This document shows, piece after piece, positions 1,101 to 62,156 of a stretch of DNA of 64,000 nucleotides. The position numbers were made by a program, and so were the translations under genes. The notes beneath the pieces were generated by a model. That model did no database searches. It saw nothing but the letters and a program-made list of their open reading frames with translations, and was not told the DNA's origin. Every line of letters starts with the position of its first letter. Position 1 is the first letter of the stretch. Location of the stretch: positions 26,597 to 90,596 of the forward strand of contig DICM01000020.1 of assembly GCA_002416285.1 (NCBI GenBank), read 5' to 3'. This DNA comes from Bacillales bacterium UBA5026 (GTDB lineage: Bacteria; Bacillota_I; Bacilli_A; RF39; UBA660).

Positions 1101-2078
1101 CTATTTTGTCGTTGCTAGCTTGACTTCATCAAGATAATTTGTTGAATTACTATAGGCATAGTAATCTTGATTCACAATATTATAAAAATGACGAACTCCC
1201 GTTAACCAATTTTGATTTAAATTATTAGGATCATTCAAAGCTCCAATCGGTGCATAAATTGGTTGCATCTGAGCTAAAAAATTGGAATCTGTTGGATTGA
1301 AATTTTCATCAATTACATAGCGATAGATATGATTCATAACAGCAGTAATCGTTGCCTCCTCACGATTTGAAAAAGTGAGCAAAGAGCCATTCGTTCCTGT
1401 GATACCATAACCATTATTAAAATCCATATATTGAGTACTTGTTTTGATGTGAGATTCATGAAGAAAAATAGAAAGTACAATTTCTTTTGGAATCATATTA
1501 CCAAAAACCTCACAAGTATGAGCAATTAAGTCCTCATCTAATTGATCTGTTGTATATTGATAATCATAAAAAATAGCTTCCTTCGTATAACCATATTTAT
1601 CTGGTCTTTCTTTTAAAGATTTTACAAAAGCAATAATCCCCGCTTCCAGATTAGAAAACACTCTTTCTTGCCCTCGAACTGTAGTTCCTGGAATGTTGAA
1701 ACTATTCTTAAATGAATCAGATTTTATATGTGATTGAGCAATTGAATTGGCAATTTCATAATTGACATTAAAAACCTTACAATAATGATTTATTAATGCT
1801 TCAATAGACTCGTCCACTACAACGATCGTTCCTTGAGTACCATCGCTTCGATTATAAGATAAAATATCTGTAACGACTCCTGTATCCATAGTTTTCTCGT
1901 CCATCTGATAATTGATATTCATCGAATGTTCCAGTTCCTTAGAATTAATATATAAAGTACCCTCTACTACATTTGAATTCTTTTCAAGTTTTACCGTTCC
2001 CAATTCTGTATACAACTGAGATAGACATAAAATGATCCCACCTGCAATTACAATTGGTTTTATTCTAACATAATTCAT
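1101..2078 (-). CDS. hypothetical membrane-anchored protein
   Basis: ORF 1101..2096. The preferred start is the ATG at 2078 (MNYVRIKPIVIAGGIILCL, a single N-terminal TM), preceded by an AGGTGG RBS. No family recognised. Confidence 0.5.
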   Translation of the reverse strand: MNYVRIKPIVIAGGIILCLSQLYTELGTVKLEKNSNVVEGTLYINSKELEHSMNINYQMDEKTMDTGVVTDILSYNRSDGTQGTIVVVDESIEALINHYCKVFNVNYEIANSIAQSHIKSDSFKNSFNIPGTTVRGQERVFSNLEAGIIAFVKSLKERPDKYGYTKEAIFYDYQYTTDQLDEDLIAHTCEVFGNMIPKEIVLSIFLHESHIKTSTQYMDFNNGYGITGTNGSLLTFSNREEATITAVMNHIYRYVIDENFNPTDSNFLAQMQPIYAPIGALNDPNNLNQNWLTGVRHFYNIVNQDYYAYSNSTNYLDEVKLATTK

Positions 2079-2195
2079 ACTACCACCTAATAACATTGTA
2101 CATGAAAAAGAAACAGATTCAAGAAAAAAATCAATTTTTCTTGATTTTTTCCTTTTTACACTGTTTTTATCAATTTTGATTTTTATTTGAAGTTA

Positions 2196-3592: not shown

Positions 3593-5920
3593 TTATTTTC
3601 CTTTTCCCATTGTTTGTTCCTGTTCCATATTTACCTGAACTATTTCACCAGTTAATTTTTTTTTAGCATCAATATAATAGCTCTCCTTTGTTGGAGGAAT
3701 CACATTAATGTTTTTATAGAATCCAACTACAGTCGTATAAGCAATATCAAATGCAGTATCAGCTACTACTTTGTCGAATTCAGTTGTGCTAACTTTACTT
3801 TCAGTGTCAGATAATTGATTTTTTAATGAACGAATTTCTTTTGCTTGTTCAAATTGTTTTGATTTCTCTACAGTAATTGAACGAGTAGTATCATTAACTT
3901 TTCGTTCCATTTCAGCTATTTTTCTATCTTTTTCAGCTAATTTAGTTTCTGTAGAATATCTTACCTGTCGAACTTCATTTCTTAAACTAGCACTTTCGTC
4001 CTTCAATTTTGCATTTGCTGTTTCTAACAAATTCACTTCTTTTCGTGCTTCTGTTCCATAAAAATATTGCATATCACCAAGAAGAGACGTCATAACTTCT
4101 ACCACTTTTGTAACCTTATTTGTCATATTATTTTTTATGTGGCTAGGTGCATCTTGAGGTATTATAGCAGATAAAAATGATTCTAAATTAAATGTCACAT
4201 TTTGTTGTGTTGGATCATTACCAGTCATATTATCTTTTATTGTATCAATTGGTTGTACCGTTGTTTGTTCCATATTCACATCCTTTATTTCAGAGGACAT
4301 CTTTTGTGGTTGTATATCATTTAAAATATTGTCATCAGCTTGACCTTGCTCTAAAGTATGAGCAACCTCAATGTTTTCAATTGTTTCATTTGCATTTACC
4401 ATAGATTCTTCCTCTTTAGTTTCTGAAGGAACACTACTATCATTCTTATGCTCCTCTTCCTCTTTTAAAATTCTAATAGCATCTGTTAGATCATCAACAA
4501 TAATACTTGTCCCACTATTTTCAGATATCATTTTTTTATTACTGATTACATTTTTATCTAAAATATTACTATCTTCTAGAAATTGGGTATGATTCTCGAC
4601 TAAAAAAGTTAATAAAGCAGAAAATTTTCCTTTACCATTTAATTCCTTATAATGTTCTTCCCACTTATCCACAAAATTATCACAGAATTGTGTTGCCACA
4701 ATAAATCTATTTTGTAGTTCTATATTATTCTCTTTTTCAATTGATTCAGCATCTTTTTTATATTCTTTACTTGCACGCAATTCAGGCAAATTTTCTTCGC
4801 GAAGTTTTAAATGTTGCAAATAAATCTTTGTAGCGATTTGAATATGATCATCTGTATTATGATCTTTACACCACTGCTCTAAGAAATTATCCTCTTTTTC
4901 TAATTCTTTTTTTAAATCAGCAATAAGACTTTTAGCCATATCAGAATCAATTTCAGTAAGGATAGGATGTGTCTGTAAATAAATAGTCATTAAAACCATA
5001 TCAAAATAGGCATTTGCATTTGCTTTTGAAATATTTTCATCCAAAGAGATAGGAAATAAATTTTTCAAACCTCCTTTTTTAGCAAATTGATTATACTTTG
5101 TGATTGCTAATAAAAATCCTGTATTATCCTGCGTTTTATCTTCTGCTTTTTCTTGCCCCAAAAATGTTTCAGTTTCTAAATCTTCCATATATTTTTCTGT
5201 AGCAGTTATAAAAACCTTGGTATTGATAAAATTTTTTACAGCACCAGATAATCTTGTTTTTCCTGTTGTATCATCTTTGATAATTCCCTCATCACCGTCG
5301 GCTTGTAATTTATAAAATTCAGTTATAGCCATTTGGTATGCCATACTTTCTATAGGATAGTCGAAACTGTCCAATTTGTATAATCCTGTTTCAATATCCT
5401 CATATGCCATTTGAACGCCATCATATACAGCTTTTGCGAACTTATGTGACTTTCTTTTTAATGAAATATTGGTAAAAAAATCTAAAGAAACCTTTGAATT
5501 AGATTGCAATTTTTTGTACTCTTCTTTTGCAATCACTTCTGCAAAACTCTTGATAGCATAAGAATCATATTTTGTTTTTAATCGATTAATAGTTGCTTCT
5601 TTAGCTATAAGAGGAATGGAACTAAATCGATCTGTTGGATCATCCACCACATTACTTTCCATATCTTTTTTTTCATCAATTTGTTGCTCTATTTCACTAG
5701 CAAGTTCTTCTCTATCGGCAAAGTCAGCGTTATATTTATCAATTTTTTCTTGACTAGAATCTATCAGTTTTTCCAAACTTAAACTTAAGAGATTATTAAC
5801 TCCCGGTATTTTACTACGAATAGCATCAGAAATATTCTTAAGAGCTTCTCCGTTTACTTTCGTTTTTGTATCACTTACAATTTTCTTTAATTGCTCAACT
5901 ACAATCTCTATTCTATTCAT
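3593..5920 (-). CDS. large soluble hypothetical protein with C-terminal coiled coil
   Basis: 775-aa ORF with no TM or signal peptide. There is an acidic low-complexity centre and a heptad-rich region (LKDESASLRNEVRQVRYSTETKLAEKDRKIAEMERKV...). The start overlaps the upstream DUF1292-like gene by 8 nt. Confidence 0.6.
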   Translation of the reverse strand: MNRIEIVVEQLKKIVSDTKTKVNGEALKNISDAIRSKIPGVNNLLSLSLEKLIDSSQEKIDKYNADFADREELASEIEQQIDEKKDMESNVVDDPTDRFSSIPLIAKEATINRLKTKYDSYAIKSFAEVIAKEEYKKLQSNSKVSLDFFTNISLKRKSHKFAKAVYDGVQMAYEDIETGLYKLDSFDYPIESMAYQMAITEFYKLQADGDEGIIKDDTTGKTRLSGAVKNFINTKVFITATEKYMEDLETETFLGQEKAEDKTQDNTGFLLAITKYNQFAKKGGLKNLFPISLDENISKANANAYFDMVLMTIYLQTHPILTEIDSDMAKSLIADLKKELEKEDNFLEQWCKDHNTDDHIQIATKIYLQHLKLREENLPELRASKEYKKDAESIEKENNIELQNRFIVATQFCDNFVDKWEEHYKELNGKGKFSALLTFLVENHTQFLEDSNILDKNVISNKKMISENSGTSIIVDDLTDAIRILKEEEEHKNDSSVPSETKEEESMVNANETIENIEVAHTLEQGQADDNILNDIQPQKMSSEIKDVNMEQTTVQPIDTIKDNMTGNDPTQQNVTFNLESFLSAIIPQDAPSHIKNNMTNKVTKVVEVMTSLLGDMQYFYGTEARKEVNLLETANAKLKDESASLRNEVRQVRYSTETKLAEKDRKIAEMERKVNDTTRSITVEKSKQFEQAKEIRSLKNQLSDTESKVSTTEFDKVVADTAFDIAYTTVVGFYKNINVIPPTKESYYIDAKKKLTGEIVQVNMEQEQTMGKGK

Positions 5921-11937: not shown

Positions 11938-11992
11938 TTCTACTCTTCTATAAGTATAACATGTTTCCTTTTATGTGTAAATTAATATACTA

Positions 11993-12028
11993 CTTAGATT
12001 GAATATACTTCTTAGATTGAATATACTT
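11993..12028. repeat. perfect 18-bp tandem duplication (cttagattgaatatactt x2)
   Basis: 11993-12010 is identical to 12011-12028. It lies in the intergenic region between the J-domain gene stop and the tex start. Confidence 0.9.
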
Positions 12029-12104
12029 CCAAAAGTATGCTGTTGCAAAAGGAAAAGAAATCTTCTCGATTCCTTTTAAAAATTATTGACTATTATTTAT
12101 ATTT

Positions 12105-12776
12105 TTATGCCCTTCTAGATACATTTCTCTGTTCTGTAAGAGGTGTATTGATATTCTGTAGAGCATTCATGTATGCTGTATAGTAATTAATGATCATATC
12201 TTTATCTAAATCTTTATATATTTGATGCATATAAGCTAACAAAATAGAGAAAATTTCTTGTTCGTAAATCTCTTTTACCATATTAGCATATATATGTTGG
12301 TTCCTCCAAGTTTTATCTTCTTGAGATTGTTTTTCTGTTGTTGTATTTTCATCTGCACTATTAATTGTAGCCTTGCTTTCACTTTGTTGAAATTTAAAAT
12401 TATTGAAAAAAGCATTCTTTTCTTCTCTCTTTTGATCTCTTTTGGCCTGTTCAGAATCACTATATCTTCTATCGTAATCTTCATAGTGATAGTTAGTACT
12501 TTGAGTTTTAGATTCTTCTTTGTCAGATTCTTTTTCTTGAGTTACATTCATACTTTCTTTAGCAGTATATTCATAATAATTTTCTGATATTGTTGTATAA
12601 GCTTGATTAATTGACTGCATGTTCTTTTTAGCTTGCTCAACCTCTTCTGGTCCTCCCTTTTCATGAGCATCTGGATGCCATTCTTTGGCTTTCTTTCTAT
12701 AAGCTTTTTTAATAGAGTCAATGTCAACTTGGGTTGAATCCATTCCTAATTTTTCACAGCATTGTTCAAAACTCAT
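12105..12776 (-). CDS. J-domain (DnaJ-like) protein with low-complexity acidic tail
   Basis: IKKAYRKKAKEWHPDAHEKGG contains the HPD motif of J domains. The remainder is E/K/Q-rich, with no zinc-finger or DnaJ C-terminal domain. Confidence 0.8.
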   Translation of the reverse strand: MSFEQCCEKLGMDSTQVDIDSIKKAYRKKAKEWHPDAHEKGGPEEVEQAKKNMQSINQAYTTISENYYEYTAKESMNVTQEKESDKEESKTQSTNYHYEDYDRRYSDSEQAKRDQKREEKNAFFNNFKFQQSESKATINSADENTTTEKQSQEDKTWRNQHIYANMVKEIYEQEIFSILLAYMHQIYKDLDKDMIINYYTAYMNALQNINTPLTEQRNVSRRA

Positions 12777-12855
12777 TTTTATCCTTCTTTCTACTTATCG
12801 TATTTCTATTTAATCTATAGTCATAGCTTTAATAATTTTTAAATTTCCACATCAA

Positions 12856-15120
12856 TTAAATACGGAAGATTTGTACATAAACAGTTCCGCTGTAATAGTA
12901 ATTTTCTTGCTTACAAGAATTCATAGACTTATAACTATAATAATCATATAATCTATACAAACCAACTCTTAAACCAGGTAAAAATATGGCTTGTCGATTG
13001 AATTTCTTTAAATAATTATCATTACAAATACTAAGATTTATATCTCCTGTATTTGTTCTATTACATGATCCGAAACCTCTAAAGTCCTGAATATCATTTC
13101 CAGCTCCAAAGAGAAAAGCCGTATATCCCCATTTATCCCAAGAACTCCCTGTATCATCATAATCACCAAATCCATCATATCCATCATAAGTTGATGAATA
13201 TGACTGGGTAGTACTTGCGCTCAATACTAATACTTTTCCATTATAGATGGTTCCTGATACAAACTGTTCATATTGCCCACTACAAGCTGGTTTAGCACAT
13301 GTCTTATCATTACTCGCAGTATCTTTTTGCGTATAACAAGTACAACTTCCACTTTTTCCGTTCCCAGATACAAAAGTATATCGACTACTTTGTTTTAATG
13401 CTGTCCACGCTGCATCGCTATTTCTTAAAATACTGGATGTAACTTTTGCACAATCATACATTGCATTGCGGAATTGTTGATATTCAATATAGTTTTTAAA
13501 TAAAGCTGTGTTATTTACAATAGCTTGGAAAGCTGCTGCATCACAAGCTTTGCTTTTTGACCAGTCATAGTTGTCCGGATTATCACAACTTCCTGTATTA
13601 CAACTTTGGGATTGTGTATAACTTCCACAATAGGATCCATCATAATTTGATTTCTTATGAACCGTTCGATATTGTACTCCGCCTCCACATGTCTTACTAC
13701 ATGCTCCCCATGCATCCCACTGATAATCTACTGTTGAGCTACAACAAGTTTGAGTATTGCAACTTTGACTACCTGTTGTCGTCGAACAAACTTTAGAAGT
13801 TTTATTATCTTTTACGGTTTCACTTCTACTTTGGGTTCCTCCACCACATGCCTTGCTACAACTTCCCCAACTTCCATACGAGATAGTTGTATTTCCACTT
13901 CCACACTCATTATAAAGAACGTAATTAATAGAGCGATTTACTTTATTCCCAATCGGATCCATATAAGTAATATAGATTGTTTTGGTCTCCCCATTAATCG
14001 TTCCTCCAACATTCCATGCCTTATTGGTATTATAGATTTCCCATATACCATCTTTCTCATATCCAGTATTACTAATATACATCTGAATAATCGCACCTGA
14101 ATTATCCTTGACATCAGAAACAATAGTAATAGTAGGTACATTATAAGATATATTTGTTGATTTGACTATCAAAGTATTAATTACTGGTGGTTCTAAATCA
14201 ATTTGGCTAATCGTTAAAGTGGATGGACTTGTATCATTAAATCCATCACTCGTAATTGCTTCTATAGATCCATTACTTTCAAATAAAACTTCAAGCTTTG
14301 TTCCTTCTATCTTTATTTTTTGTCCAATTGGAATAACCTGTCCATTCATTTTAGCGACACCACTATATAATCTGATATAATTTTCTACATTGCTCGGATA
14401 GGTAATCACAACTGTTTTCGTTTTTGTCCAACCACTGGGGCTGACACTATAGGATGCGGTTGGTAATTCTTTAGTTACGGCATCAATCGTTTTTTCAGTG
14501 ACTTTATCGATACGATTGGTAACTCTTACATGAACTTCATATTTGCGACTGAATCTTAATGATTCAAACTTATAGGTATCCTCATTACTTTTTATCCAAT
14601 TTTCTTCATTCCCACAATTTTCAATACAATAGGAATATCCAGTAATTCCTGTATCATCATTAGCGGTTGCTTTGATTGTTGCACTTCTAGTAGTTGTATC
14701 AATAACCTCTAAAGATAGTGCCGCATATAAATCTTTTTGATTACTACAGTCACCCTTTGTCACTGTAAGTCCATTTTTAGATCCTGTTGCACAATAATGC
14801 CCATCGGTAAAACTTTTTAAAATATATTCTTCTTTCGTATTTTGAAAGACGAGTCCTTGGACTTTGTCCTTATTCTTAATATCTAAATTTTTAATATTGA
14901 AACCATCTTTAGATAGAGTCTCATTTTTACTTACGTAAAGATTTGCGGCATCAATTGTATTTTTTGCACTAGCAATAAAGGTATTCCTTTTCGCATTTTC
15001 AATTTGGTTTACTACCAATGGTGTTACAACTAAAGTAATAACTGCGATAATTAAAATTACAGCTAAAAGTTCTACTAAAGTAAAACCACGAATTTTATTT
15101 TCCTTACTTTTATTTTTCAT
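12856..15120 (-). CDS. giant type IV pilin-like protein with FN3/Ig-like modules, two thrombospondin type-1 repeats and a Cys-rich C-terminal domain
   Basis: Prepilin signal MKNKSKENKIRG|FTLVELLAVILIIAVI (Glu at +5). Pilin-like Cys loop HYCATGSKNGLTVTKGDC. TSR signatures SWGSCSKACGGGTQSRS and WDAWGACSKTCGGGVQYRT (residues about 405-512, nt 13585-13908). AGGTGG RBS. Confidence 0.8.
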   Translation of the reverse strand: MKNKSKENKIRGFTLVELLAVILIIAVITLVVTPLVVNQIENAKRNTFIASAKNTIDAANLYVSKNETLSKDGFNIKNLDIKNKDKVQGLVFQNTKEEYILKSFTDGHYCATGSKNGLTVTKGDCSNQKDLYAALSLEVIDTTTRSATIKATANDDTGITGYSYCIENCGNEENWIKSNEDTYKFESLRFSRKYEVHVRVTNRIDKVTEKTIDAVTKELPTASYSVSPSGWTKTKTVVITYPSNVENYIRLYSGVAKMNGQVIPIGQKIKIEGTKLEVLFESNGSIEAITSDGFNDTSPSTLTISQIDLEPPVINTLIVKSTNISYNVPTITIVSDVKDNSGAIIQMYISNTGYEKDGIWEIYNTNKAWNVGGTINGETKTIYITYMDPIGNKVNRSINYVLYNECGSGNTTISYGSWGSCSKACGGGTQSRSETVKDNKTSKVCSTTTGSQSCNTQTCCSSTVDYQWDAWGACSKTCGGGVQYRTVHKKSNYDGSYCGSYTQSQSCNTGSCDNPDNYDWSKSKACDAAAFQAIVNNTALFKNYIEYQQFRNAMYDCAKVTSSILRNSDAAWTALKQSSRYTFVSGNGKSGSCTCYTQKDTASNDKTCAKPACSGQYEQFVSGTIYNGKVLVLSASTTQSYSSTYDGYDGFGDYDDTGSSWDKWGYTAFLFGAGNDIQDFRGFGSCNRTNTGDINLSICNDNYLKKFNRQAIFLPGLRVGLYRLYDYYSYKSMNSCKQENYYYSGTVYVQIFRI

Positions 15121-15162
15121 ATTACCACCTATCTTACTATTATATTCTTATTATTATATTTT

Positions 15163-15191
15163 ATTTTACAGTAGTTATCCTTTATAGTCAA
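15163..15191 (-). promoter_or_regulatory. sigma-A type promoter of downstream TSR-pilin gene
   Basis: Minus strand reads TTGACT (15186-15191)-17 nt-TAAAAT (15163-15168). The same architecture is conserved upstream of the paralog. Confidence 0.7.
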
Positions 15192-15291
15192 ATAAAAGGC
15201 ATTCAAATTTATTTAATAAAATTATTTTAATCAGAAATTTTTATACTAACAAAAATAATAATAATCTAATGGTTTTTATTTTATCAGTATG

Positions 15292-15324
15292 AAATAAAAA
15301 AGATTGAATTTTCTATTCAATCTT
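15292..15324 (-). terminator. intrinsic terminator after upstream TSR-pilin gene
   Basis: 10-bp perfect stem AAGATTGAAT/ATTCAATCTT (15300-15309/15315-15324), followed by TTTTATTT on the minus strand. Confidence 0.85.
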
Positions 15325-15332
15325 TTCCTTAA

Positions 15333-17588
15333 TTAAATAATAAATATTTGCACATAAACAGTAGCATTATAATAGTGATTTTCAATCTTAGACCCAGACT
15401 TTCCGTTATCATAATCATAGTACCAATATAGTCCAACTCTTAGATTAGGTAAAAATAAGGATTGCCTGTTATATCGTTCTGCCCAAGTTCCACTACAAAC
15501 ATTTAGATCAAGATTTCCGTTAGTAGTACGATTACATGAACCCCATCCACGATAAGAATCGACTTTATAAGAAGATCCGAGTAAGAAATAAGATCGGTAA
15601 GTATAATCTACTGATTTTGTTTCGTTATCTGCTTTTCCAAATCCATCATCATCATACTTTGTACCTAAGTAGCGGTCTGTACTAGCACTCAACACTAAAA
15701 CTCTTCCACCATAAATAATTCCAGAAGAAAACTGATCATAAGCTCCAGCACAAGCTGGCTTTTGACAATTTTTATACGCACTACTAGAATTACTGTTGTA
15801 TTTACAAGTACAACTTGTAGCACTACCATTCCCTGATACTAACGAATAACGACTACTTTGCTTTAGCGCATTCCATGCTCCATCAGTATTCCTTAAAATA
15901 TTAGCTGTTACATTTGCACAATCATACATCGCATTTCGAAATTGTTGATGTTCGATATAATTTTTAAACAGAGTGGTATTATTAGCTATCGCTTGAAAAG
16001 CTGCTGCATCACAAGCTTTACTCTTTGACCAATCATAGTTGTCAGGATTATCACAGCTTCCTGTATTACAACTTTGTGATTGTGTATAGCTTCCACAATA
16101 GGATCCATCATAATTTGATTTCTTATGAACCGTTCGATATTGTACTCCGCCTCCACATATCTTACTACATGCTCCCCATGCATCCCACTGATAATCTACT
16201 GTTGAACTACAGCAAGTTTGGGTATTACAGCTTTGCGTACCTGTCGATGTAGAACAAACTTTAGAAGTTTTATTATCTTTCACAGTCTCACTTCTACTTT
16301 GTGTTCCTCCGCCGCAAGCTTTACTACAACTTCCCCAACTTCCGTAAGACGTGGTTGTATTTCCACTTCCACATTCGTTATAAAGAACATAATTAACAGA
16401 ACGATTTACTTTATTTCCAATCGGATCCATATAGGTAATATAAACCGTTTTTGTCTCTCCATTAATAGTTCCACCGACGTTCCACGCTTTATTAGTATTA
16501 TAAATCTCCCAAATACCATCTTTCTCATAACCAGTATTGCTAATATACATTTGTATTATCGCACCTGAATTATCTTTTACATCAGAGACAATGGTAGTAG
16601 TAGGAACATTATAAGATGCATTTGTTGATTTAACAGTTAAAGTATTAATAACCGGTGGCTCTAGATCAATTTGACTAATGGTCAAGGTTGATGGACTTGT
16701 GTCATTGAAACCATCACTAGTAATTGCTTCTATAGAACCATTCGTTTCAAATAAAACTTCAAGTGTTGTTCCCTCTATTCGTATCTTTTCTCCAATTGGA
16801 ATAACCTGTCCATTCATTTTCGCAACACCACTATATAATCTTATATAGTTTTCTACATTGCTCGGATAGGTAATGACAACTGTTTTTGTTTTTGTCCAAC
16901 CACTGGGGCTGACACTATAGGATGCAGTTGGTAACTCTTTTGTCACTGCATCAATCGTTTTTTCAGTGACCTTATCAATACGATTCGTTACTCTTACGTG
17001 AACTTCATATTTACGACTGAACTTTAAAGACTCAAATTTATAGATATCCTCATTACTTTTTATCCAATTAGCTTCATTCCCACAGTCTTCAATACAATAG
17101 GAATATCCGGTAATCCCGGTATCATCGCTAGCTGTTGCTTTTATTGTCGCACTTCTCGTAGTTGTATCAAGCACTTCTAAAGATAGTGCTGCATATAAAT
17201 CTGTTTGATCACTACAGTTTCCCTTTGTTACCAAAAGTCCATTCTTAGACCCTGTCGCACAATAATGTCCATCTGTAAAGCTTTTTAAAATATATTCTTC
17301 TTTCGTATTTTGAAATACAAGCCCTTGCACTTTATCTTTATTCTTAATATCTAAATTTTTAATATTGAAGCCATCTTCAGGTAATGACGCATTCTTACTT
17401 ACATAAAGATTTGCGGCATCAATAGTATTCTTCGCACTGGCAATAAATGTATTCTTTTTCGCATTTTCAATTTGGTTTAATACTAATGGTGTTACAACTA
17501 AAGCAATTACTGCAATAATTAAAATTACAGCTAAAAGCTCTACCAAAGTAAAACCTAAAATTCTCTTTCTCATAATTTTCTTTCTCAT
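15333..17588 (-). CDS. giant type IV pilin-like protein, paralog of 12856..15120 (two TSP1 repeats, divergent C-terminal domain)
   Basis: The ORF track begins at 17645, but that extension overlaps the promoter. ATG at 17588 gives MRKKIMRKRILG|FTLVELLAVILIIAVI, a 12-aa leader of the same length as the paralog, behind an AGGTGA RBS. TSRs at nt 16053-16376. Confidence 0.8.
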   Translation of the reverse strand: MRKKIMRKRILGFTLVELLAVILIIAVIALVVTPLVLNQIENAKKNTFIASAKNTIDAANLYVSKNASLPEDGFNIKNLDIKNKDKVQGLVFQNTKEEYILKSFTDGHYCATGSKNGLLVTKGNCSDQTDLYAALSLEVLDTTTRSATIKATASDDTGITGYSYCIEDCGNEANWIKSNEDIYKFESLKFSRKYEVHVRVTNRIDKVTEKTIDAVTKELPTASYSVSPSGWTKTKTVVITYPSNVENYIRLYSGVAKMNGQVIPIGEKIRIEGTTLEVLFETNGSIEAITSDGFNDTSPSTLTISQIDLEPPVINTLTVKSTNASYNVPTTTIVSDVKDNSGAIIQMYISNTGYEKDGIWEIYNTNKAWNVGGTINGETKTVYITYMDPIGNKVNRSVNYVLYNECGSGNTTTSYGSWGSCSKACGGGTQSRSETVKDNKTSKVCSTSTGTQSCNTQTCCSSTVDYQWDAWGACSKICGGGVQYRTVHKKSNYDGSYCGSYTQSQSCNTGSCDNPDNYDWSKSKACDAAAFQAIANNTTLFKNYIEHQQFRNAMYDCANVTANILRNTDGAWNALKQSSRYSLVSGNGSATSCTCKYNSNSSSAYKNCQKPACAGAYDQFSSGIIYGGRVLVLSASTDRYLGTKYDDDGFGKADNETKSVDYTYRSYFLLGSSYKVDSYRGWGSCNRTTNGNLDLNVCSGTWAERYNRQSLFLPNLRVGLYWYYDYDNGKSGSKIENHYYNATVYVQIFII

Positions 17589-17616: not shown

Positions 17617-17645
17617 ATTTTACAGTAGTTACCATTTATAGTCAA
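17617..17645 (-). promoter_or_regulatory. sigma-A type promoter of upstream TSR-pilin gene
   Basis: Minus strand reads TTGACT (17640-17645)-17 nt-TAAAAT (17617-17622). It sits directly after the polA terminator. Confidence 0.7.
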
Positions 17646-30110: not shown

Positions 30111-30566
30111 TTATTCACCGATTGTTGAAAAATTTTCTACAACTTTAGCAGTTTTACCATCATATTCAACTTTATAACCGTTGATTGTTAATTGAGCTAA
30201 CTTAATTTCACCACCGTCAACAACTACTTTTCCACCATCGACTGGATTTTTACCTTTGAAATCAACTGTAATTGTAATGGCTTTATCATCAGTAGTTTTT
30301 TCTGTATCTGCAGTAAGTGTTTTTCCTTCTAATGATGTTGTATAAGTATCATCTACAATTTTAGCTTCACTAGCATTAGTAAGCATATTTTTTAAAGTTG
30401 ATTTTTCAACAGAATCAATATACCCGTATGCACTACTTTCAGCAGCACCTTTCTTAGCACTATCAATAACTCCTAAAATCATTGGTGTAGCAATTAACGC
30501 AATGATTGCAAGAATAACGATAACAGCTAGTAATTCAATTAATGTAAAACCTTTTGTATTTTTCAT
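30111..30566 (-). CDS. type IV pilin-like protein (short, major-pilin-like), copy 1
   Basis: MKNTKG|FTLIELLAVIVILAIIALIATPMILGVIDSAKKGAAESSAYGY. This is a prepilin cleavage/methylation motif with Glu at +5. GGAGG RBS at 30576-30580. Confidence 0.9.
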   Translation of the reverse strand: MKNTKGFTLIELLAVIVILAIIALIATPMILGVIDSAKKGAAESSAYGYIDSVEKSTLKNMLTNASEAKIVDDTYTTSLEGKTLTADTEKTTDDKAITITVDFKGKNPVDGGKVVVDGGEIKLAQLTINGYKVEYDGKTAKVVENFSTIGE

Positions 30567-30776: not shown

Positions 30777-31232
30777 TTATCCTTCAATTGCAGAAAAGTT
30801 TTCTACAACTTTAGCAGTTTTACCATCATATTCAACTTTGTAACCGTTGATTGTTAATTGTGCTAATTTAATTTCTCCACCATCAACAACTACTTTTCCA
30901 CCATTCTCTGGATTTTTACCTTTGAAATCAACTTTGATTTTAACTGGTGCAGCTGGTGTACCAACCGCTTTTGTACCTGTTAGTGTTTTTCCAGCATCAC
31001 TGATTGTGTAAGTATCATCTACGATTTTAGCTTCTGAAGCATTAGCTAGCATATTTTTTAAAGTTGATTTTTCTACTGCATCAACATACCCATATGCACT
31101 ACTTTCAGAAGCACCTTTCTTAGCACTATCGATTACTCCTAAAATCATTGGTGTTGCAATTAACGCAATGATTGCAAGAATAACGATAACAGCAAGTAAT
31201 TCAATTAATGTAAAACCTTTTGTATTTTTCAT
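30777..31232 (-). CDS. type IV pilin-like protein, copy 2
   Basis: Same length (151 aa) as copy 1. It is near-identical over residues 1-75 and from about 101 to 151, but differs over residues about 76-100. Confidence 0.9.
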   Translation of the reverse strand: MKNTKGFTLIELLAVIVILAIIALIATPMILGVIDSAKKGASESSAYGYVDAVEKSTLKNMLANASEAKIVDDTYTISDAGKTLTGTKAVGTPAAPVKIKVDFKGKNPENGGKVVVDGGEIKLAQLTINGYKVEYDGKTAKVVENFSAIEG

Positions 31233-31364: not shown

Positions 31365-31400
31365 TAAAAGAAAAATAGAAGTTATTTCTTCATAACTTCT
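31365..31400 (-). terminator. intrinsic terminator after pilin gene 3
   Basis: 9-bp stem AGAAGTTAT/ATAACTTCT (31377-31385/31392-31400) overlaps the TAG stop. TTTTTCTTTTATTTT follows on the minus strand. Confidence 0.8.
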
Positions 31401-31839
31401 ATCTTGCGGCTGTTGCTTTTTTACCATCATATGTAACAACATAACCATTAATCGTCAATGTAGCTGCAGTAATCTCTCCACCAGCAATTGTAACGGAGTC
31501 ATCTACACCTTTTGGACTATCTCCTTTGAATGATACATTGATTGTTACTGGGGTAGTTCCATCTGCTTCCATCTTTGTGTTAGCAGTAAGAACTTTACCA
31601 TCACTACTAATTGAATAAGTATCATCAACTAATGTATTACCATTATTATCAATCATATCTTTTAAACTTGATTTTTCAACTGAATCGACATACCCGTAGG
31701 CACTACTTTCAGCAGCACCTCTTTTAGCACTATCAATAACTCCTAAAATCATTGGTGTTGCAATTAAGGCAATGATCGCTAAAATAACGATTACAGCTAG
31801 TAATTCAATTAAGGTAAAACCTTTTCTATTTGCTTTCAT
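31399..31839 (-). CDS. type IV pilin-like protein, copy 3 (more divergent)
   Basis: MKANRKG|FTLIELLAVIVILAIIALIATPMILGVIDSAKRGAAESSAYGY. The globular part is about 50% similar to copies 1 and 2. AGGAGGTAG RBS. Confidence 0.9.
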   Translation of the reverse strand: MKANRKGFTLIELLAVIVILAIIALIATPMILGVIDSAKRGAAESSAYGYVDSVEKSSLKDMIDNNGNTLVDDTYSISSDGKVLTANTKMEADGTTPVTINVSFKGDSPKGVDDSVTIAGGEITAATLTINGYVVTYDGKKATAAR

Positions 31840-34559: not shown

Positions 34560-35312
34560 TTATTTTCCTCTCTTTTCTAAATAATTATTGACAAGTTCTT
34601 TTATTTTTAATAGTTTTTGATTTTCATTAGGATTATATTTTATTAATTCATCTACAATCCAATTAATAGAATTGTGATATTTTAAATATTGGAAACTATA
34701 TGAAAAATTAAAATCAAACAAGAATGAAATAATTAGCAATGTATGATCCATGTTGGTTTGGACATCTTTTTTGTTGACCGAATTACAACTCATCAACTGG
34801 GTAAAACAGTCATCTGTAATTGCGCCTAAATCAGAATTGATTTTTAAATCACCCATTTGATATAAATATAAGATATCTAATTTGTCCGCATCACGAATAA
34901 TCTTACAAAATAGTAAAGTTCTTTCATCCAGTCCATCATCGATTGTTAATTTATTATGATTTTCTATAGCGGTTAATATAAGTTCTTGAACTTCTATATC
35001 CATTACATATTCTTGAATATAATAATTCATCTTTAATATTTCAACACCTAAAATGGCATGATCAACCGAAGTATTATCATTAAATGTATCATAAATTCTT
35101 AACTGTTCAAATCTGCCTATATCATGTAATAATCCAATTAAAGATGCGATATTAATATCTTCTTCTTTCAAATTTAAAGAAATAGCTATTTCTCTGCAAA
35201 AATTCATGACTCTAAAAGTATGATCTCGCTTCTGTCGAATCTTAAAATTATTCATATCATAATTTTTAATATATTCCTCAAATCTTATTTTACATTTATT
35301 TAAGTCAATCAT
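34560..35312 (-). CDS. HD-domain phosphohydrolase (function unknown)
   Basis: HTFRVMNF...[13 protein letters not shown]...DHAILG give the H..HD..D metal ligands. The track ORF (to 35456) runs through a T-box leader. The real start is ATG 35312 (MIDLNKCK) behind AGAAGGTGA. The stop lies 2 nt before the valS ATG. Confidence 0.8.
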
Positions 35313-35328
35313 AGTTTCACCTTCTAAC

Positions 35329-35545
35329 AAAAAAACAATCCATCCATAAAGGACGAATTGCTCGTGGTACCACCTTAGTTTCATATCTTGCGATATGCTT
35401 AATTCTTTAACGCAGAATACGGAATTTTCTACTGAATTCAAAAATTCGACTCCCAAGCTACCTTCCTAAATTTCTTTGTTCCGTTTTCACCACCCACGAA
35501 CTCTCTATTCAAATCCATCTAGTAATCCTCTTGTTCTTCATCATT
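35329..35545 (-). promoter_or_regulatory. T-box riboswitch leader (tRNA-sensing transcription attenuator), probably Val-specific
   Basis: Minus strand carries an AGAGAG box and a GGTGAAAA distal-loop-like element (35481-35510). The conserved T-box sequence AAACTAAGGTGGTACCACGAG is at 35361-35380. The terminator CAATTCGTCC-TTTAT-GGATGGATTG-TTTTTTT is at 35329-35360. A candidate GUA specifier lies within GGAAGGUAGC (35459-35461). Confidence 0.85.
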
Positions 35546-35551
35546 AGAACT

Positions 35552-48616: not shown

Positions 48617-50655
48617 TTATATATATCTTGTAACAATTTCTAATATCTTATTTACTTCTTGCATCAATACATTATAGTTTTGCTTGATATATTCATTATC
48701 ATTTTCTTTACTTGCAATCTCATGATTGAATGCAGTTTCTGCTAAAGTTTTAAATCCTAAATATTTAGAATCACTCTTTAAGGCGTGTACCTCAATTGCA
48801 TAGTTTGCCATATCACCAGTTTTCTTAAATGAAGTTAATTTGGCAATTCTCATATCGATTGCATCTAAGAAATCTTTCAAGGTATCATTATACATATTGA
48901 TATCTCCTAAAATCTGAATTCCTTGCGCAACATCAATTCCGTTTTCTTTTAAGTAATCAATATTCCCCTTCGTAACTACAGTAACTGGGGTTACAAATTC
49001 TGTTGTAGGCTCTTTTGCAGTATTGCTAGCCTCTTCTTTGTTCACTGTTTGATTGGTATCTACATTTTTATCTAAGAATAGATGAATAATGCGATCAAGT
49101 TCAAACTTATCGATTGGTTTAGAAATATATTCATCAAACCCCTCCCCTAAGTATTTTTCTCTTGATCCAGCAATCGCATTTGCTGTCAAAGCAATAATTG
49201 GTGTTTTAATTCCCATATCTTTTAATTTATGCATTGTTTCCGTACCTGTTGTTACTGGCATCATATCATCCATAAATATTAGGTCATAATTAGATCCAGA
49301 TTCTATTTTTTCAATACTTGACTCACCACTTAAAACTTCTTCAATCGTAAAGTTATATGGTTGTAAAAACTTAGAAGCAATTTTAATATTAATCCTATTA
49401 TCATCGACGATTAAGACTCTTTTTCTTGCATAATTTGAAAAACAAATTGTATTCTCTTTTGATATTGTTGGTTTTAAATATTTTGTCAAAACTTTGATCA
49501 ATTCTTCTTTTTCAATCGGCTTTGCCAAGTAATCCTCAAAACCTTCCTTCATGTAATGTTCTCTCATACCCGTGATAGCATTAGCGGTTAAAGCAATAAC
49601 CGGAATACTAAAACCGTCAATCTCCTTTAAATGTTTTAATGCTTCAACACCTTTCATAACAGGCATCATATCATCCATCAAAATGAGATCATAATGTTCA
49701 TGTTTCTTGATTCGTTCAATTGCTTCAACACCACTGTCTACTAAAACAGTATTTAGTTCATAACGTTTTAAAATCTTATCAGCAACTTTTAAATTTAATT
49801 TATTATCATCAACTATTAAAACTCTTGAATTAGAAAATTTTAAATTTTCTTCCTCTTCATTTATGACTCTTAATTCTTCTCCACCATGCAATTGAAGAAT
49901 TTTCTGTTTCAGATAAATGGTAAATTTAGACCCTTCACCATATACACTTTGTACAACTATCTTTCCACCCATCATTTCAGCAAGTGACTTGGTAATGGCA
50001 AGACCAAGGCCAGTTCCTTCTAACGTTGTATTTTTATCCTCATCTAATCGGTTAAACTTCGTAAATAAGCTATCAATTTTTTCTGGCTTAATTCCTCGAC
50101 CGGTATCTTCAATCGAGATAACAAGAGAACATTCATCATTCTCATTAATACAGTTTACAGTAAAAATAATTTTCCCTTTTTCAGTATATTTGACGGCATT
50201 GGTTAATATATTCGTTATAATTTGTTTAATTTTTCCCAGATCTCCATACATAACAGCTGGAATATCAGGAGCAAAAGAGGTAATAAATTCAATTGGTTTT
50301 TCTGCGAGTCTCGGTCCAATTAGTTTTGAAAGATTCTCTAAATTAGGGCGTAATTCATATTTCATATTAACGATTTCCATTTTATTTGCTTCAATCTTTG
50401 AAATATCTAGAATACCATTGACAATTTCCAACAAATTTTGCGAAGCCATGATAATATCGGCTGCATCCTTTTGGATTGCTTCCATCGAAGTTTCTGTTTT
50501 AATGCATTCCGAGAATCCCACAATTGCATTTAATGGAGTACGAATCTCGTGGGACATACTAGATAGGAACTCTGATTTTGCACGATTTGCCTTCTCTGCA
50601 TGTTCTTTTGCAAGCTCTAATTCTGAAAGCATTTTCATGTCCGGATTTTCTATGG
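48617..50655 (-). repeat. about 2.0-kb high-identity segment shared with 53511..55565
   Basis: The cytoplasmic parts of the two kinases (from [18 protein letters not shown] to the C-terminus) are nearly identical in protein and very similar in DNA. The membrane sensor parts (50656-51286 versus 55566-56210) are divergent. Confidence 0.85.
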
Positions 50656-51286
50656 TATGATACATCAGTACAACAATAAAACTTATTAGTGGTGACATTA
50701 ATAAATATTCCGGATTAGTCATTTGTAGATAAATAATCGGAGCTACCATAGTAATAAATGTAACGATTGGAATATTCTTTTTCTTTTTCATTTTTTTTAC
50801 ATCTCTAATGAGATAGGATATCCAAATTAGAATTACAATTCCAGCAACTAAATACAAAAAATTTGTATTAGCACCGTATGCATATATAATATTATCCTGT
50901 TTGTAATAATAAACAGGTAAAATGTAGTTTACTACGGTAGCAATAATATACATTATAGAGAAACACATTAGTTTCCGTTTGCCAATTAATGATAATTTTG
51001 AAGAATTCTCTGAAATAAACATATACGTTGACAATAGATATATAATAGTCAATAAATACGTATAGTAAAGCTTTAGCACAAACCATCTAACAATACTTGA
51101 ATCATCAATATACAAACTTGCATAAACTCCTATCAAATCCATTACTACACCAAATATAGCAAAAAGGAGAATATATTTATAGATTGTGGTTTCAAATGAA
51201 ACAATTTTCTTTTTTGAAAAATATAAAATAGCAATTAGTATAAGATAACACAAACTTGCAACCATTAATAATACATTTGCATTCAT
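48617..51286 (-). CDS. hybrid sensor histidine kinase: polytopic N-terminal sensor, HisKA, HATPase_c, two receiver domains, C-terminal Hpt
   Basis: About 6-7 TM helices. H-box [13 protein letters not shown] boxes ([20 protein letters not shown]). Two REC domains (LIVDDN...LILMDDMMP; LIVDDN...LIFMDDMMP). Hpt ([16 protein letters not shown]). Confidence 0.9.
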
Positions 51287-51342
51287 AACATCCCTACCTT
51301 ACTAATAAGTATAACATGTATATTTATAATTGTGTAGCATAA

Positions 51343-51376
51343 ATAAAAAAAATAAGAATCATTAATGATTCTTATT
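51343..51376 (-). terminator. strong intrinsic terminator after HAD/acyltransferase gene 1
   Basis: 12-bp palindrome arms AATAAGAATCAT/ATGATTCTTATT (51351-51376), followed by TTTTTTTT on the minus strand. Confidence 0.9.
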
Positions 51377-51402
51377 AGCAAACTAGAATATGATAGAGTT
51401 TT

Positions 51403-52935
51403 TTATAAAGATCTTATATTTTGTGATAAAACCTTTACTTTATTAACACTTTCAGCATCATCTTTCTTTGTATTAATCTTTACTAATTCTTCTATTATAG
51501 TATTAATTCCGTTAATCGCATTATTAACAGAAGTAGTCCAACGTTGAGCAATTTCACTTGCTTTTAATCCTTCTGTATAAATAGGTTTTAAAAAGGCAAT
51601 GATAACTCTATTTGGAATATCAACTTCTTTTGGTACCCATACCATAGCGATTGGACGAACAACACCTTTTCCATCTTCAGCAATTTTAAAAGCTTGATTT
51701 GATTTCAAAGGTAATATATTTCCATTTTCATCTGGTTTTCGATTAATGGTTCCTTCTGGGTAAATAGCAGTTGCAGATCCTGCTGCCAAATAATCATTTA
51801 TATATTTAAAAGTTTGAAGATTAGTTATCATATAATCAGTGTCTTCTGGTCGTGCAATAGGAAGTGCTCCTGCTGATTTTACTAAGAAAGTAGTAGCATA
51901 AGTTCCAAGATTATTTCCTACTGTACCAAATATATTCTCATTATTTTCAAACATTCTTTTTAATGCAGCAAAATGTGTTGGATGTTTTAGCAGAGCCATA
52001 GTTATTAGTGGATCCTTTATATTTCTATGATTACTTACAAACACATCCGGTCCTTTTTCTTTTGGAATATTTTCTTCACCAATAATCAAAGGATTTAAAT
52101 CATATACTTTTGAATATATTTTCGCACTAACCCGAATTAATTTATAGAAATTTTCTGTATAAAATTTTTGATACATTTTTAAACTTTTAATTTTACGTTT
52201 GTTTTTTTCTTTTTGGGTTAATTCTCTTTTTGGTTTCTTTACAAGCTTATTCTTCTCAGCATTATTAACAACTGCCATTACAGATTCGTGTGTAAAAGGA
52301 ACTCTAACTACTCTTTCATTTTCAAATTCTTCTAAAACATTATGCAGTGTCTCTACACAAACAGGGATTGTATCAATATCACTTAAATCGTTTATTACCT
52401 CTATAGTATCTTCAAAAACAAAAGACGGTTTTAAATCTGCAATTATTTGTTTTTTATCCTCTACCTTTTCTACTAAAACCAGTTGTTTGTATTTAATATC
52501 ATTTAGTTTTAATTGTAGCTTTGTAAGTAAAGGAACAGCTACTTTTCTCAGAAAAACATCTTTTATTGTCTCTTCCTCTTTAGTTTTAATACCACGTAAA
52601 GAGACAAATGTTATTTTATATCCTCTACTAGTTAAATCATTTATAATGTTTGTCGCATCAGGACGTAAAGGTTGAAAATTATATTTGAGAAACATTTTAG
52701 CATTATATGAAGCAATTGCTTTTTTACATTTTAAAGTTAATTCTTCTTCACTAAGAGTACTATCCTTTGACTTAAAAAATTCATATAGTCCAAAAATTTC
52801 TGCGACATTTTTACCATTTGGATTTACAACTTTCGCATCCATTCCATATTTCTTTTTTAAATATGCTGGGGCTTCTTTTAAAATAAACCCAGTTTCATCA
52901 ATAATTGTATCATCAATATCAAAAACAATATTCAT
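51403..52935 (-). CDS. fusion protein: N-terminal HAD-like hydrolase + C-terminal PlsC/LPLAT-type acyltransferase
   Basis: HAD motif I FDIDDTIID. Acyltransferase H(x)4D box VSNHRNIKD and IYPEGTINR box. GAGGGGGA RBS. Confidence 0.8.
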   Translation of the reverse strand: MNIVFDIDDTIIDETGFILKEAPAYLKKKYGMDAKVVNPNGKNVAEIFGLYEFFKSKDSTLSEEELTLKCKKAIASYNAKMFLKYNFQPLRPDATNIINDLTSRGYKITFVSLRGIKTKEEETIKDVFLRKVAVPLLTKLQLKLNDIKYKQLVLVEKVEDKKQIIADLKPSFVFEDTIEVINDLSDIDTIPVCVETLHNVLEEFENERVVRVPFTHESVMAVVNNAEKNKLVKKPKRELTQKEKNKRKIKSLKMYQKFYTENFYKLIRVSAKIYSKVYDLNPLIIGEENIPKEKGPDVFVSNHRNIKDPLITMALLKHPTHFAALKRMFENNENIFGTVGNNLGTYATTFLVKSAGALPIARPEDTDYMITNLQTFKYINDYLAAGSATAIYPEGTINRKPDENGNILPLKSNQAFKIAEDGKGVVRPIAMVWVPKEVDIPNRVIIAFLKPIYTEGLKASEIAQRWTTSVNNAINGINTIIEELVKINTKKDDAESVNKVKVLSQNIRSL

Positions 52936-52961
52936 AATCTTCCCCCTCTTTTATGGCTTGT

Positions 52962-52989
52962 ATTATACACATAAATTTTATTTTGTCAA
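52962..52989 (-). promoter_or_regulatory. sigma-A type promoter (conserved block A, copy 1)
   Basis: Minus strand reads TTGACA (52984-52989)-16 nt-TATAAT (52962-52967). An identical arrangement is at 59769-59796. Confidence 0.75.
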
Positions 52990-53188
52990 ATTTTACCATT
53001 ATTTTTCTAAAAAGTCTTAAAAATAATTGATTTATATAAAAAAGTAAAGAACTTCATAAACTCTTTCGATGGGTTTGGTGAACACTTTTAACAAGTATTT
53101 GTTATAAGAAGAAGCTAAAATTTATAATAGTCTTATCTATTGTAATTATAACACAAACTTTCTTTAAAAGACTAGTTTAAAGAAAAAA

Positions 53189-53389
53189 TTAAAGAAAAAA
53201 AGAGTTTTTATACTCTTTTGGTAAATATTGTGTAAAATAATTTAATGAATAAGTATTCTCTCTTATATTTAAAGCAAATGTCAATTCATGGTACTCATAA
53301 AGAATTTCTGTAACAACACTTTCTATATGATTAAAATGTATAATATTTACCAAAATTATAAATAAAGTAATAAATAATATATCAACCAT
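53189..53389 (-). CDS. doubtful small membrane ORF (66 aa from ATG 53389)
   Basis: AAGGGGAG RBS and one TM (MVDILFITLFIILVNII). However, its last 17 or so codons read through a sequence block, including a terminator hairpin, that is non-coding in the paralogous copy at 59975-60016. Confidence 0.3.
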   Translation of the reverse strand: MVDILFITLFIILVNIIHFNHIESVVTEILYEYHELTFALNIRENTYSLNYFTQYLPKEYKNSFFL

Positions 53390-53510
53390 AATTCTCCCCT
53401 TAGAAATTTGTTTCTGATAATATATCAAAATTCCTAGTTTGGCAAGAAAAGGTGATAAAAATTGGTATTTATTTTAATAAAAAAAGGACATAAAAGTCCT
53501 CTTTATACAA

Positions 53511-56210: not shown

Positions 56211-56324
56211 ACCAACATCTCCATTCTTTACTATTAATAGTATAACATAAAAAAAAGAACTATCAAACGATAATTCTTATAATATTGATGATTTTATAAG
56301 TTAACGAGTATTGTGCACTATATA

Positions 56325-57863: not shown

Positions 57864-57891
57864 AATATCATTTCCCCCTCTTTTATAGTAT

Positions 57892-60019: not shown

Positions 60020-60583
60020 CTATTTTACTAATCTTTTTTGTCCTGAAAAATCTACTAATTTATCTTCATTACCAACTAAAGTTTCCTTTTCATTTGATAT
60101 ATCCAAAGCATTTTTAGATACTAAATCAATTTTTTGAATCAATTGATAATTTTGATAGAAACTTGCAACTCCATTAAAATCTATAAAAACTACCATTATC
60201 ATATTTTCAGTTTGTTCTCGAAATAGCAAATCCTTTTTGCTTATCCGATCATCCCTATATATATCATAGAGATTTTCAAAGCCCCTTGTAGCTTTTAAGG
60301 ATTTACCATCATATCTCGTTACATACCAATCATTGTCGGTAACCGTTTCATATATTATTGTTTGAGTTTCTTTTCTATATACCGCATAATAATAATCGCT
60401 AAAAGTAGTATCCTTTTTTTTAATATCTTCTGTTTTTGTATCACTAGTAGATGAACTGCATCCAGTAAGAACACTAGTAGTTAAAATTGGAGTTATCAAT
60501 AAATAAGTTGCTAATTTCAATTGTTGTAAAAAAGTATATTTTTTTAATGTTTTATTTTGTTCAGAATTATCCATATTTTTCAT
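60020..60583 (-). CDS. putative lipoprotein, unknown family
   Basis: Lipobox-like LLITPILTTSVLTG|CSSS. The C-terminal half (VVFIDFNGVASFYQNYQLIQKIDLVSK) is paralogous to 60760..61314. Confidence 0.7.
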   Translation of the reverse strand: MKNMDNSEQNKTLKKYTFLQQLKLATYLLITPILTTSVLTGCSSSTSDTKTEDIKKKDTTFSDYYYAVYRKETQTIIYETVTDNDWYVTRYDGKSLKATRGFENLYDIYRDDRISKKDLLFREQTENMIMVVFIDFNGVASFYQNYQLIQKIDLVSKNALDISNEKETLVGNEDKLVDFSGQKRLVK

Positions 60584-60759
60584 TAATATTTCCCCCTTTT
60601 CCTAAATTGATGCTTATACTAACACTTCTTCATTTTATTGTCAAATTATGAAACAATTCAATTGTGTAAAATAATTTCGAGAAAATAAAAATAGTAAACT
60701 TTAATCATTAGTGTTTACTATTTACAATACTTTTTTGGCAAACTATATTTAAGTAATAA

Positions 60760-62076: not shown

Positions 62077-62156
62077 AGGAGAGTATCATAACTCTCCTCC
62101 GACTGTTGAAAAATTACTTTGTCAACAGTTTAAAATAATCGGTAATACAATACCGA

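Follow-up and report, generated by a model that had tools for sequence, protein, structure and literature searches.

Giant modular type IV pilin-like proteins with thrombospondin-repeat stalks and variable tip domains in an uncultured member of the Bacilli

Introduction

A 64,000-nucleotide stretch of DNA from Bacillales bacterium UBA5026 (GenBank assembly GCA_002416285.1, contig DICM01000020.1, positions 26,597 to 90,596 of the forward strand; hereafter the window) carries a tandem pair of genes, A and B, both on the minus strand, that encode giant modular prepilins. We describe the architecture of the two proteins, the pattern of selection across them and a rule that holds throughout their family, in which a constant shaft carries a variable tip. 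A and B are probably modular minor type IV pilins that would be cleaved after Gly12 and put into pili made of small pilins, with the C-terminal tip held out for binding. We infer the processing, assembly, tip location and ligand binding of A and B by analogy with Streptococcus sanguinis PilB and PilC. A preliminary description of the window, made from the sequence alone, had proposed a pilus-displayed or membrane-tethered adhesin, which still appears to be the best functional class for these proteins.

Results

Gene A (12856..15120, minus strand) encodes 754 residues and its paralogue, gene B (15333..17588, minus strand), encodes 751 residues. Both open reading frames (ORFs) are present where the preliminary description had placed them, and both products have Pfam N_methyl and TSP1 matches above cut-off (family matches in Pfam and NCBIfam were judged against curated cut-offs throughout). 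The mature A protein has a computed mass of ~81.9 kDa. A and B are 82% identical overall and 50% identical over the last 160 residues.

Each protein begins with a class III (prepilin) signal, a basic 12-residue leader ending in Gly (MKNKSKENKIRG in A, 15085..15120; MRKKIMRKRILG in B, 17553..17588, assigned from its sequence; both minus strand) followed by FTLVELLAVILIIAVI, with Phe at +1, Glu at +5 and Pro at +22. Cleavage is predicted after Gly12. The prepilin signal had been recognized by eye, and it passes the cut-offs of both N_methyl PF07963 (24.4 bits for A and 21.8 bits for B; cut-off 21.2) and TIGR02532 (21.2 and 17.6 bits; cut-off 16.3).

The pilin module occupies residues 13–130 (14731..15084 in A and 17199..17552 in B, minus strand), the latter assigned by comparison with A and with the small pilins described below. 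We modeled full-length A with AlphaFold2 (AF2) from a 68-sequence alignment; the model is confident from about residue 20 to residue 510, with the tip at a predicted local distance difference test score (pLDDT) below 50. The head comprises a helix (α1, residues 15–64) and four strands (residues 88–93, 99–105, 109–113 and 119–122) at pLDDT 80–93, so that the predicted model has the α1 helix on a four-stranded sheet and the C-terminal disulfide loop that define a pilin fold. The loop cysteines, Cys110 and Cys125, are at least 90% conserved among 68 relatives, which together with the AF2 fold bears out the small pilin-like head with a Cys...Cys loop seen earlier in the sequence. In a PDB sequence search, residues 13–67 match the S. 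sanguinis pilin PilE1 (8pfb). Neither protein has an LPXTG sorting signal (A ends in TVYVQIFRI and B in TVYVQIFII), and we therefore rejected a sortase-assembled Gram-positive pilin.

The proximal stalk consists of three FN3/Ig-like (fibronectin type III or immunoglobulin-like) β-sandwiches, residues 131–405 (13906..14730 in A; 16374..17198 in B, assigned by comparison with A; minus strand). The AF2 model places them at residues 134–401, with pLDDT >90 over residues 130–400, and a Foldseek search relates the stalk to tandem FN3 arrays of neogenin, Tie2 and fibronectin (E ~1e-9). The fn3 hidden Markov model (HMM) is below threshold in A and B (E = 0.17) and significant in 7 of 21 relatives; Y_Y_Y, fn3 and Ig_J matches were all found among relatives. 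The three sandwich modules proposed from the sequence are thus upheld by the predicted structure and the Foldseek matches, and remain below threshold by HMM in A and B themselves.

Two thrombospondin type-1 repeats (TSRs) complete the stalk. In A, TSR1 (residues 406–459, YGSWGSCSKACGGGTQSR; 13744..13905, minus strand) and TSR2 (residues 460–512, WDAWGACSKTCGGGVQYR; 13585..13743, minus strand) have six cysteines each; the corresponding TSR1 and TSR2 of B (residues 406–512; 16053..16373, minus strand) are 96% identical to those of A. Two stretches per protein match TSP models, with TSP1_spondin PF19028 at 47.1 bits in A and 50.0 bits in B (cut-off 41), TSP_1 PF00090 at 35.1 and 39.6 bits (cut-off 21.6), and TSP1_ADAMTS also above its cut-off. 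In a PDB sequence search, residues 415–513 align in tandem to thrombospondin-1 TSR2-3 (3r6b, E = 3.8e-6; also 1lsl and 7yyk). With both the family thresholds passed and this tandem alignment, the repeats claimed by the preliminary description are genuine, two in each protein. Each is three-stranded in the AF2 model (pLDDT ~80–90). The Trp/Arg ladder is short, comprising Y-x-x-W and one Arg in TSR1 and W-x-x-W and one Arg in TSR2. The six-cysteine pattern was likewise read correctly, apart from the spacing of the N-terminal cysteines, which was slightly miscounted: 14 residues separate Cys406 and Cys421 in TSR1 (10 of them before SWGS), and 7 residues lie between Cys460 and WDAW in TSR2.

Each protein has 24 cysteines at conserved positions, corresponding to 12 putative disulfides (one in the head, one in the first sandwich, D1, three in each TSR and four in the tip). 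A disulfide-dependent fold in a presumably anaerobic Firmicute had been called odd, and the disulfide load is indeed unusual.

The most unusual part of the protein, residues 513–754, had been left undescribed. This orphan tip (12859..13584 in A; residues 513–751, 15336..16052, in B; minus strand) comprises a six-helix bundle followed by a β-sandwich. Modeled separately by AF2 from a 16-sequence tip alignment, it folds confidently (pLDDT 92.8, predicted TM-score [pTM] 0.88), and its last strand, VYVQIFxI, is nearly invariant. The tip belongs to no family in Pfam, NCBIfam or PHROG. When 1.84 billion cluster representatives were searched exhaustively with HMMER, no more than 18 proteins with a related tip came to light. 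All matches whose N-terminus is on record carry a prepilin N-terminus, some without any TSR; among the others, one begins inside the hydrophobic helix and the remainder are fragments. By its sequence relatives, the tip appears to be a rare C-terminal module confined to giant pilins.

Foldseek comparison of the tip model with the PDB gave a single match at E <1e-3, the receptor-binding protein (RBP) of the C. difficile phage CDHS-1 (7qlr, E = 9e-4, TMq 0.23). Comparison with BFVD also gave a single match at E <1e-3, the tail fiber A0A8S5MZY8 of Myoviridae sp. ctGRa7 (E = 2.5e-5, probability 1.0, TMq 0.43). No tblastn match to the tip was found in 50,697 phage records, PHROG gave nothing significant, and a scan of IMG/VR with the stalk alignment returned generic prepilin N-termini only. 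We considered and rejected the tip as a phage homolog, with no tblastn or PHROG support and both TMq values below 0.5. Judged from the models, the likeness to tail fibers and RBPs is a resemblance of fold only, which would point to a receptor-binding role and not to homology.

Comparison of A with B, region by region, gave a sharply uneven pattern of divergence. The head (residues 13–130; 85% identity over residues 1–130) has a synonymous divergence (dS) of 0.57 and a ratio of nonsynonymous to synonymous divergence (dN/dS) of 0.08. The sandwiches (residues 131–405) are 94.5% identical (dS 0.76, dN/dS 0.04) and the TSRs (residues 406–515) 96% identical (dS 0.50, dN/dS 0.04). Identity falls to 83% in the helical part of the tip (residues 516–590; dS 1.6, dN/dS 0.06) and to 50% in the distal sandwich (residues 591–754; dS 1.25, dN/dS 0.36). 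The stalk is under strong purifying selection and the distal sandwich has sharply diverged.

A related genome encodes an equivalent pair, P0003 and P0004. The P0003 tip matches that of A (66% identity) and the P0004 tip that of B (81% identity), and the stalks of the pair are 96–99% identical to each other. This arrangement suggests two old tip types carried on stalks that are held similar within each genome. The comparison of A/B with P0003/P0004 hints at concerted evolution, but recent gene conversion of the stalk was rejected: stalk dS is substantial (0.5–0.8), and purifying selection therefore explains most of the stalk similarity.

The window also contains three tandem genes for small type IV pilins of 151, 151 and 146 residues (30111–30566, 30777–31232 and 31399–31839, minus strand), each matching N_methyl at 35–37 bits and also TIGR02532. 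They are closely related to one another and lie between polC and valS, ~13 kb from A and B, with no pilus machinery genes adjoining. Over 56 residues, their α1 region and that of the giant pilins A and B are 45% identical (E = 1e-14). On this sequence likeness, the obvious candidate major subunits of a filament bearing A and B are the three small pilins.

Evidence for assembly machinery comes from the contig of a distant family member, P0118, on which a T2SSF platform protein and a Peptidase_A24 protein are encoded together ~8 kb upstream of the giant pilin gene (locus L048, 191–2472). The lineage therefore does have such machinery. No assembly ATPase is encoded next to this pair, and the machinery genes seem to be dispersed. 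A search for T2SSF homologs, aimed at the platform protein of the window's own genome, gave as its best 120 matches only proteins from close relatives of the organism that supplied the query. In several relatives of A and B, another gene begins 2–13 nt after the giant-pilin stop codon, and its product is a membrane protein anchored by its N-terminus (200–240 or 420 residues, without a Pfam match; locus L047, 12319–12942 and 15327–15929; L011, 12301–12945; L048, 11883–12596; L006/L010, ~11987–13609). Three of these membrane proteins are homologous to one another (E = 1e-17 to 1e-40). The genes of the window include no homolog of them, and a conserved downstream partner was rejected as part of the A/B locus.

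Several observations weigh against A and B as pilus-borne modular pilins with a binding tip. The likeness to the small pilins is significant over α1 only. Genes for PilB, PilC, PilD and PilM-O are absent from the 64-kb window and from the 10 kb of contig that follow it. In eight contexts that we compared, giant pilin genes lie outside pilus operons and have housekeeping genes as neighbors (polA, polC, smc, ligA, nrdD and rpmF, for example). A subunit of 82 kDa, with 12 putative disulfides, would need to reach its fold outside the cell of an anaerobic Firmicute. The likeness of the tip to tail fibers falls short of the customary TM threshold of 0.5 and is not backed by sequence, and the cleavage, assembly and binding of A and B are all predicted.

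Some of the same observations would suit a membrane-tethered surface adhesin that is not polymerized, in which the class III signal serves for export and N-terminal anchoring and the stalk spans the thick wall to expose the tip; archaeal sugar-binding proteins carry class III signals. The scattering of the genes among housekeeping genes with no adjoining machinery fits such a protein, five tandem stalk domains would be about long enough to cross a Gram-positive wall, and the translationally coupled small membrane protein of several relatives could be a dedicated partner. We nevertheless regard a tethered adhesin as rather unlikely. A mere anchor would not need the complete conserved pilin head of A and B, with E5, P22, the disulfide loop and an α1 like that of the small pilins, and three canonical small pilins are kept in the same genome. 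Modular pilins that have been studied experimentally are, moreover, assembled into pili (PMC8179133).

The family to which A and B belong was surveyed in the best 120 database clusters. The prepilin motif is present in 75 of these clusters, and all but four of the 75 (71) have between 1 and 12 TSRs. The layout is constant, with the head followed by a β-sandwich stalk of 260–670 residues, one or more TSRs and a tip of 55–345 residues. The tips are not constant: among 63 prepilin-TSR proteins they fall into 25 unrelated clusters, and 22 tip-type representatives gave no confident family in Pfam (the best matches were DUF7743, E = 0.0013, and F5_F8_type_C, E = 0.0056). Close relatives can be aligned through the stalk and first TSR and not beyond. 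The preliminary description had recognized no described pilin with a prepilin-TSR fusion. The fusion is not without precedent: at least 71 metagenomic protein clusters have it, and the combination IPR012902-IPR000884-IPR000884 (N_methyl+TSP1+TSP1) has a single entry, without comment, in Dataset S1 of the modular-pilin survey by Raynaud et al. (2021, PMC8179133).

The TSRs of this family bear on the possibility that the repeats themselves are the functional, host-mimicking part, which would bind host ligands of TSRs such as CD36, glycosaminoglycans or matrix proteins after being gained from a eukaryotic host. Such mimicry would be compatible with pilus assembly. Eukaryotic TSRs are adhesive modules, and the repeats of A and B are genuine, aligning in tandem to thrombospondin-1. 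The organism also looks gut-associated: a bile-salt-hydrolase-family gene flanks the window, an anaerobic C4-dicarboxylate carrier is encoded within it, and nrdD, pfl and ferredoxin genes are found on contigs of relatives, markers that are consistent with an anaerobic gut bacterium. The repeats nonetheless behave otherwise. Their consensus has six Cys, CSKxCGGGTQxR and a ladder reduced to one conserved Trp and one conserved Arg. Prepilin-linked TSRs cluster apart, and for 216 of 219 of them the nearest neighbor lies in another prepilin protein, which argues that they diversified within bacteria with no recent acquisition. Together with native G+C (~0.31–0.34 across A and B against 0.26–0.37, mostly ~0.30, in the rest of the window), this makes the suggested horizontal origin from eukaryotes unlikely as a recent transfer. 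Copy number varies from 1 to 12, as for a spacer; the close relatives P0018–P0020 have no TSRs at all; and between the paralogs the TSRs are the most conserved region, while the tip diverges. We accordingly hold host mimicry by the TSRs, as proposed in the preliminary description, to be doubtful, more so than a tethered adhesin. From the sequence comparisons, the TSRs of the prepilin family appear to behave as conserved stalk modules, and the likely ligand-binding part is the variable C-terminal domain.

It is highly improbable that A and B are minor pilins of a competence (Com) pseudopilus or another non-adhesive type IV filament, with a C-terminal part that captures DNA or some other substrate: the N-termini are similar, below threshold, to ComGC, ComGD and GspG, and on two related contigs family members are encoded no more than ~10 kb from comEA and comEC, but the ComG equivalogs score far under their cut-offs (ComGC 28.2 against 75 bits, ComGD 27.8 against 70), the small pilins (~150 residues) match type IV pilus major pilins and not ComGC, and no nucleic-acid-binding domain was detected with Pfam or Foldseek.

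The A/B pair is preceded by polA, which has its own terminator hairpin, and followed by a J-domain gene and tex. An AGGTG ribosome-binding site is present for each gene. That of B precedes an ATG at 17588, which we take as the start. The longer B start given by the ORF lister, a TTG at 17645, was rejected because it falls within a promoter-like element, so that the B coordinates of the preliminary description are right. The element, TTGACT-17-TAAAAT, occurs once before B (17617..17645, minus strand) and once before A (15163..15191, minus strand), in both cases as a match to consensus only, and was copied together with the gene.

A protein identical to A (P0001) is encoded in a metagenome-assembled genome (MAG), NCBI GCA_032085635.1, on contig DAMCXE010000004.1. 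In an alignment-based scan of a genome collection, relatives were found at three loci only, all in MAGs labeled 'Bacilli bacterium'. The genome represented by GCA_032085635.1 contains at least four giant TSR pilin genes, A and B and at least two more, which encode proteins of 779 and 864 residues (locus L046, 10001–12340 and 16792–19386; contig DAMCXE010000001.1). Genes for two further prepilin-type proteins, of 136 residues (L046, 3678–4088) and 362 residues (L046, 21373 to the locus end, which cuts the latter), are present in this MAG, and its extra prepilin genes are dispersed among housekeeping genes.

Upstream of the gene for the 864-residue giant pilin, at a distance of ~260 bp, is a gene for a 384-residue DsbD_TM-thioredoxin fusion with a CVAC active-site motif (L046, 15379–16533), and at ~2.6 kb a gene for a PrsA-like PpiC rotamase (L046, 13228–14193). 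These two proteins may be folding or disulfide factors for the Cys-rich giant pilins.

Elsewhere in the window, a duplicated module (48617–59751, minus strand) encodes two hybrid histidine kinase/receiver proteins (889 and 899 residues), each of which precedes a HAD+acyltransferase protein (510 and 512 residues), and is closed by an AMP-binding enzyme of 619 residues. An HD-domain gene and valS are preceded by a T-box leader (35346–35547, minus strand; 120.7 bits). Because this leader runs into the 5′ end of the listed ORF 34560–35456, the real start of that ORF must lie further downstream. A 775-residue ORF (3593–5920, minus strand), a 331-residue ORF (1101–2096, minus strand) and four ORFs of ~190 residues (60020–62717) have no Pfam match, and the five of these six that were scanned have no NCBIfam match either. 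Two of the ~190-residue ORFs, 60020–60583 and 60760–61335, look like paralogs by eye.

Discussion

In the reading that we consider probable, a prepilin peptidase would cleave A and B after Gly12, and the hydrophobic α1, nearly identical to that of the small pilins, would allow them to enter the type IV pilus that the small pilins form, probably at its tip or at low frequency. The stalk, ~20–25 nm long as estimated from typical domain lengths, would keep the C-terminal domain off the filament, where the tip could bind its ligand. The TSRs would serve as disulfide-stapled stalk modules and need not be the binding site. A, B and at least two paralogs elsewhere in the genome could then offer differing binding specificities on a shared scaffold.

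A broader proposal, which we put forward as a tentative possibility, is that A and B belong to an undescribed display system of uncultured gut-type Bacilli, in which a conserved pilin-FN3-TSR shaft carries dozens of unrelated, exchanged orphan tips, in several copies per genome; the A/B tip would be a true and possibly trimeric relative of phage RBP heads, and the TSRs a native bacterial stalk module, not one borrowed from metazoans. Such a system, if real, would be a pilus-borne counterpart of the host-range diversification of phage tail fibers.

The TSR, commonly regarded as an adhesion module of eukaryotes, would here be a recurring building block of bacterial surface filaments across a lineage of uncultured Bacilli. 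The idea of a modular pilin would be widened beyond a single grafted domain to take in long stalks of several domains whose tips are interchangeable. The tips form a reservoir of unannotated, confidently folded putative binding domains and are candidate factors for gut colonization or inter-microbial recognition. The export of proteins with 12 putative disulfides by an anaerobic Firmicute raises the question of extracytoplasmic disulfide handling, and a DsbD-thioredoxin fusion is encoded beside a sister gene.

Modular pilins are an established, diverse and widespread kind of protein, of which InterPro listed 264 architectures in 2021 (Raynaud et al., 2021, PMC8179133). By definition, A and B belong to this kind, as each joins an N-terminal IPR012902 module to domains that are not peculiar to the biology of type IV pili. 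The closest parallel is with S. sanguinis PilB (vWA [von Willebrand factor A] module) and PilC (lectin module) (Raynaud et al., 2021; Shahin et al., 2023, PMC9934059), modular pilins for which pilus-mediated adhesion has been demonstrated (PMC8179133). Like them, A and B occur in a monoderm host, have a class III signal with E5, carry the functional module on the C-terminus of a small pilin module, coexist with multiple small major pilins and are predicted adhesins. Unlike them, A and B are ~30 kDa larger, interpose a five-domain stalk (three FN3/Ig domains and two TSRs) between head and effector, have an effector of orphan fold in place of vWA or lectin, and are encoded outside a pil operon; the A/B type also has several paralogs per genome with swapped tips and many putative disulfides.

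CofB of enterotoxigenic E. coli (ETEC) and TcpB of V. cholerae, both large minor pilins of type IVb pili, and ComZ of Thermus, which are presented at the pilus tip (summarized in PMC8179133), share with A and B a pilin head followed by extra β-rich domains on a linker. Their hosts are diderm, they have no TSR, their genes are inside the pilus operon, and they have no sequence or domain relationship to A and B.

The TSRs of A and B resemble those of eukaryotes (thrombospondin-1 TSR2-3, F-spondin, properdin and TRAP) in their length of ~54 residues, six cysteines, CSxxCGxG core, three modeled strands and tandem arrangement, with Trp ahead of the core and Arg behind it; of the Pfam models, the spondin-like subtype with an N-terminal Cys fits them best. 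They differ in the reduced ladder (Y/W-x-x-W and a single Arg) and in forming a bacterial subfamily that clusters apart. To our knowledge, the machinery for C-mannosylation and O-fucosylation of TSRs is not to be expected in bacteria.

With the phage tail fiber and RBP (A0A8S5MZY8 and 7qlr), the A/B family shares the layout of a conserved shaft with a variable distal head, putatively for binding, whereas the tip has TM-scores of only 0.23–0.43 to these proteins and no sequence similarity to phage records or PHROG. A literature search yielded no paper that deals with pilins bearing TSRs or with TSRs in bacteria. The bare N_methyl-TSP1-TSP1 fusion has been catalogued but never described; new relative to known systems are the long multi-domain stalk, the recurrent use of TSRs as stalk modules in bacteria, the orphan tail-fiber-like tip, and the organization of these proteins as a multi-copy family with swapped tips.

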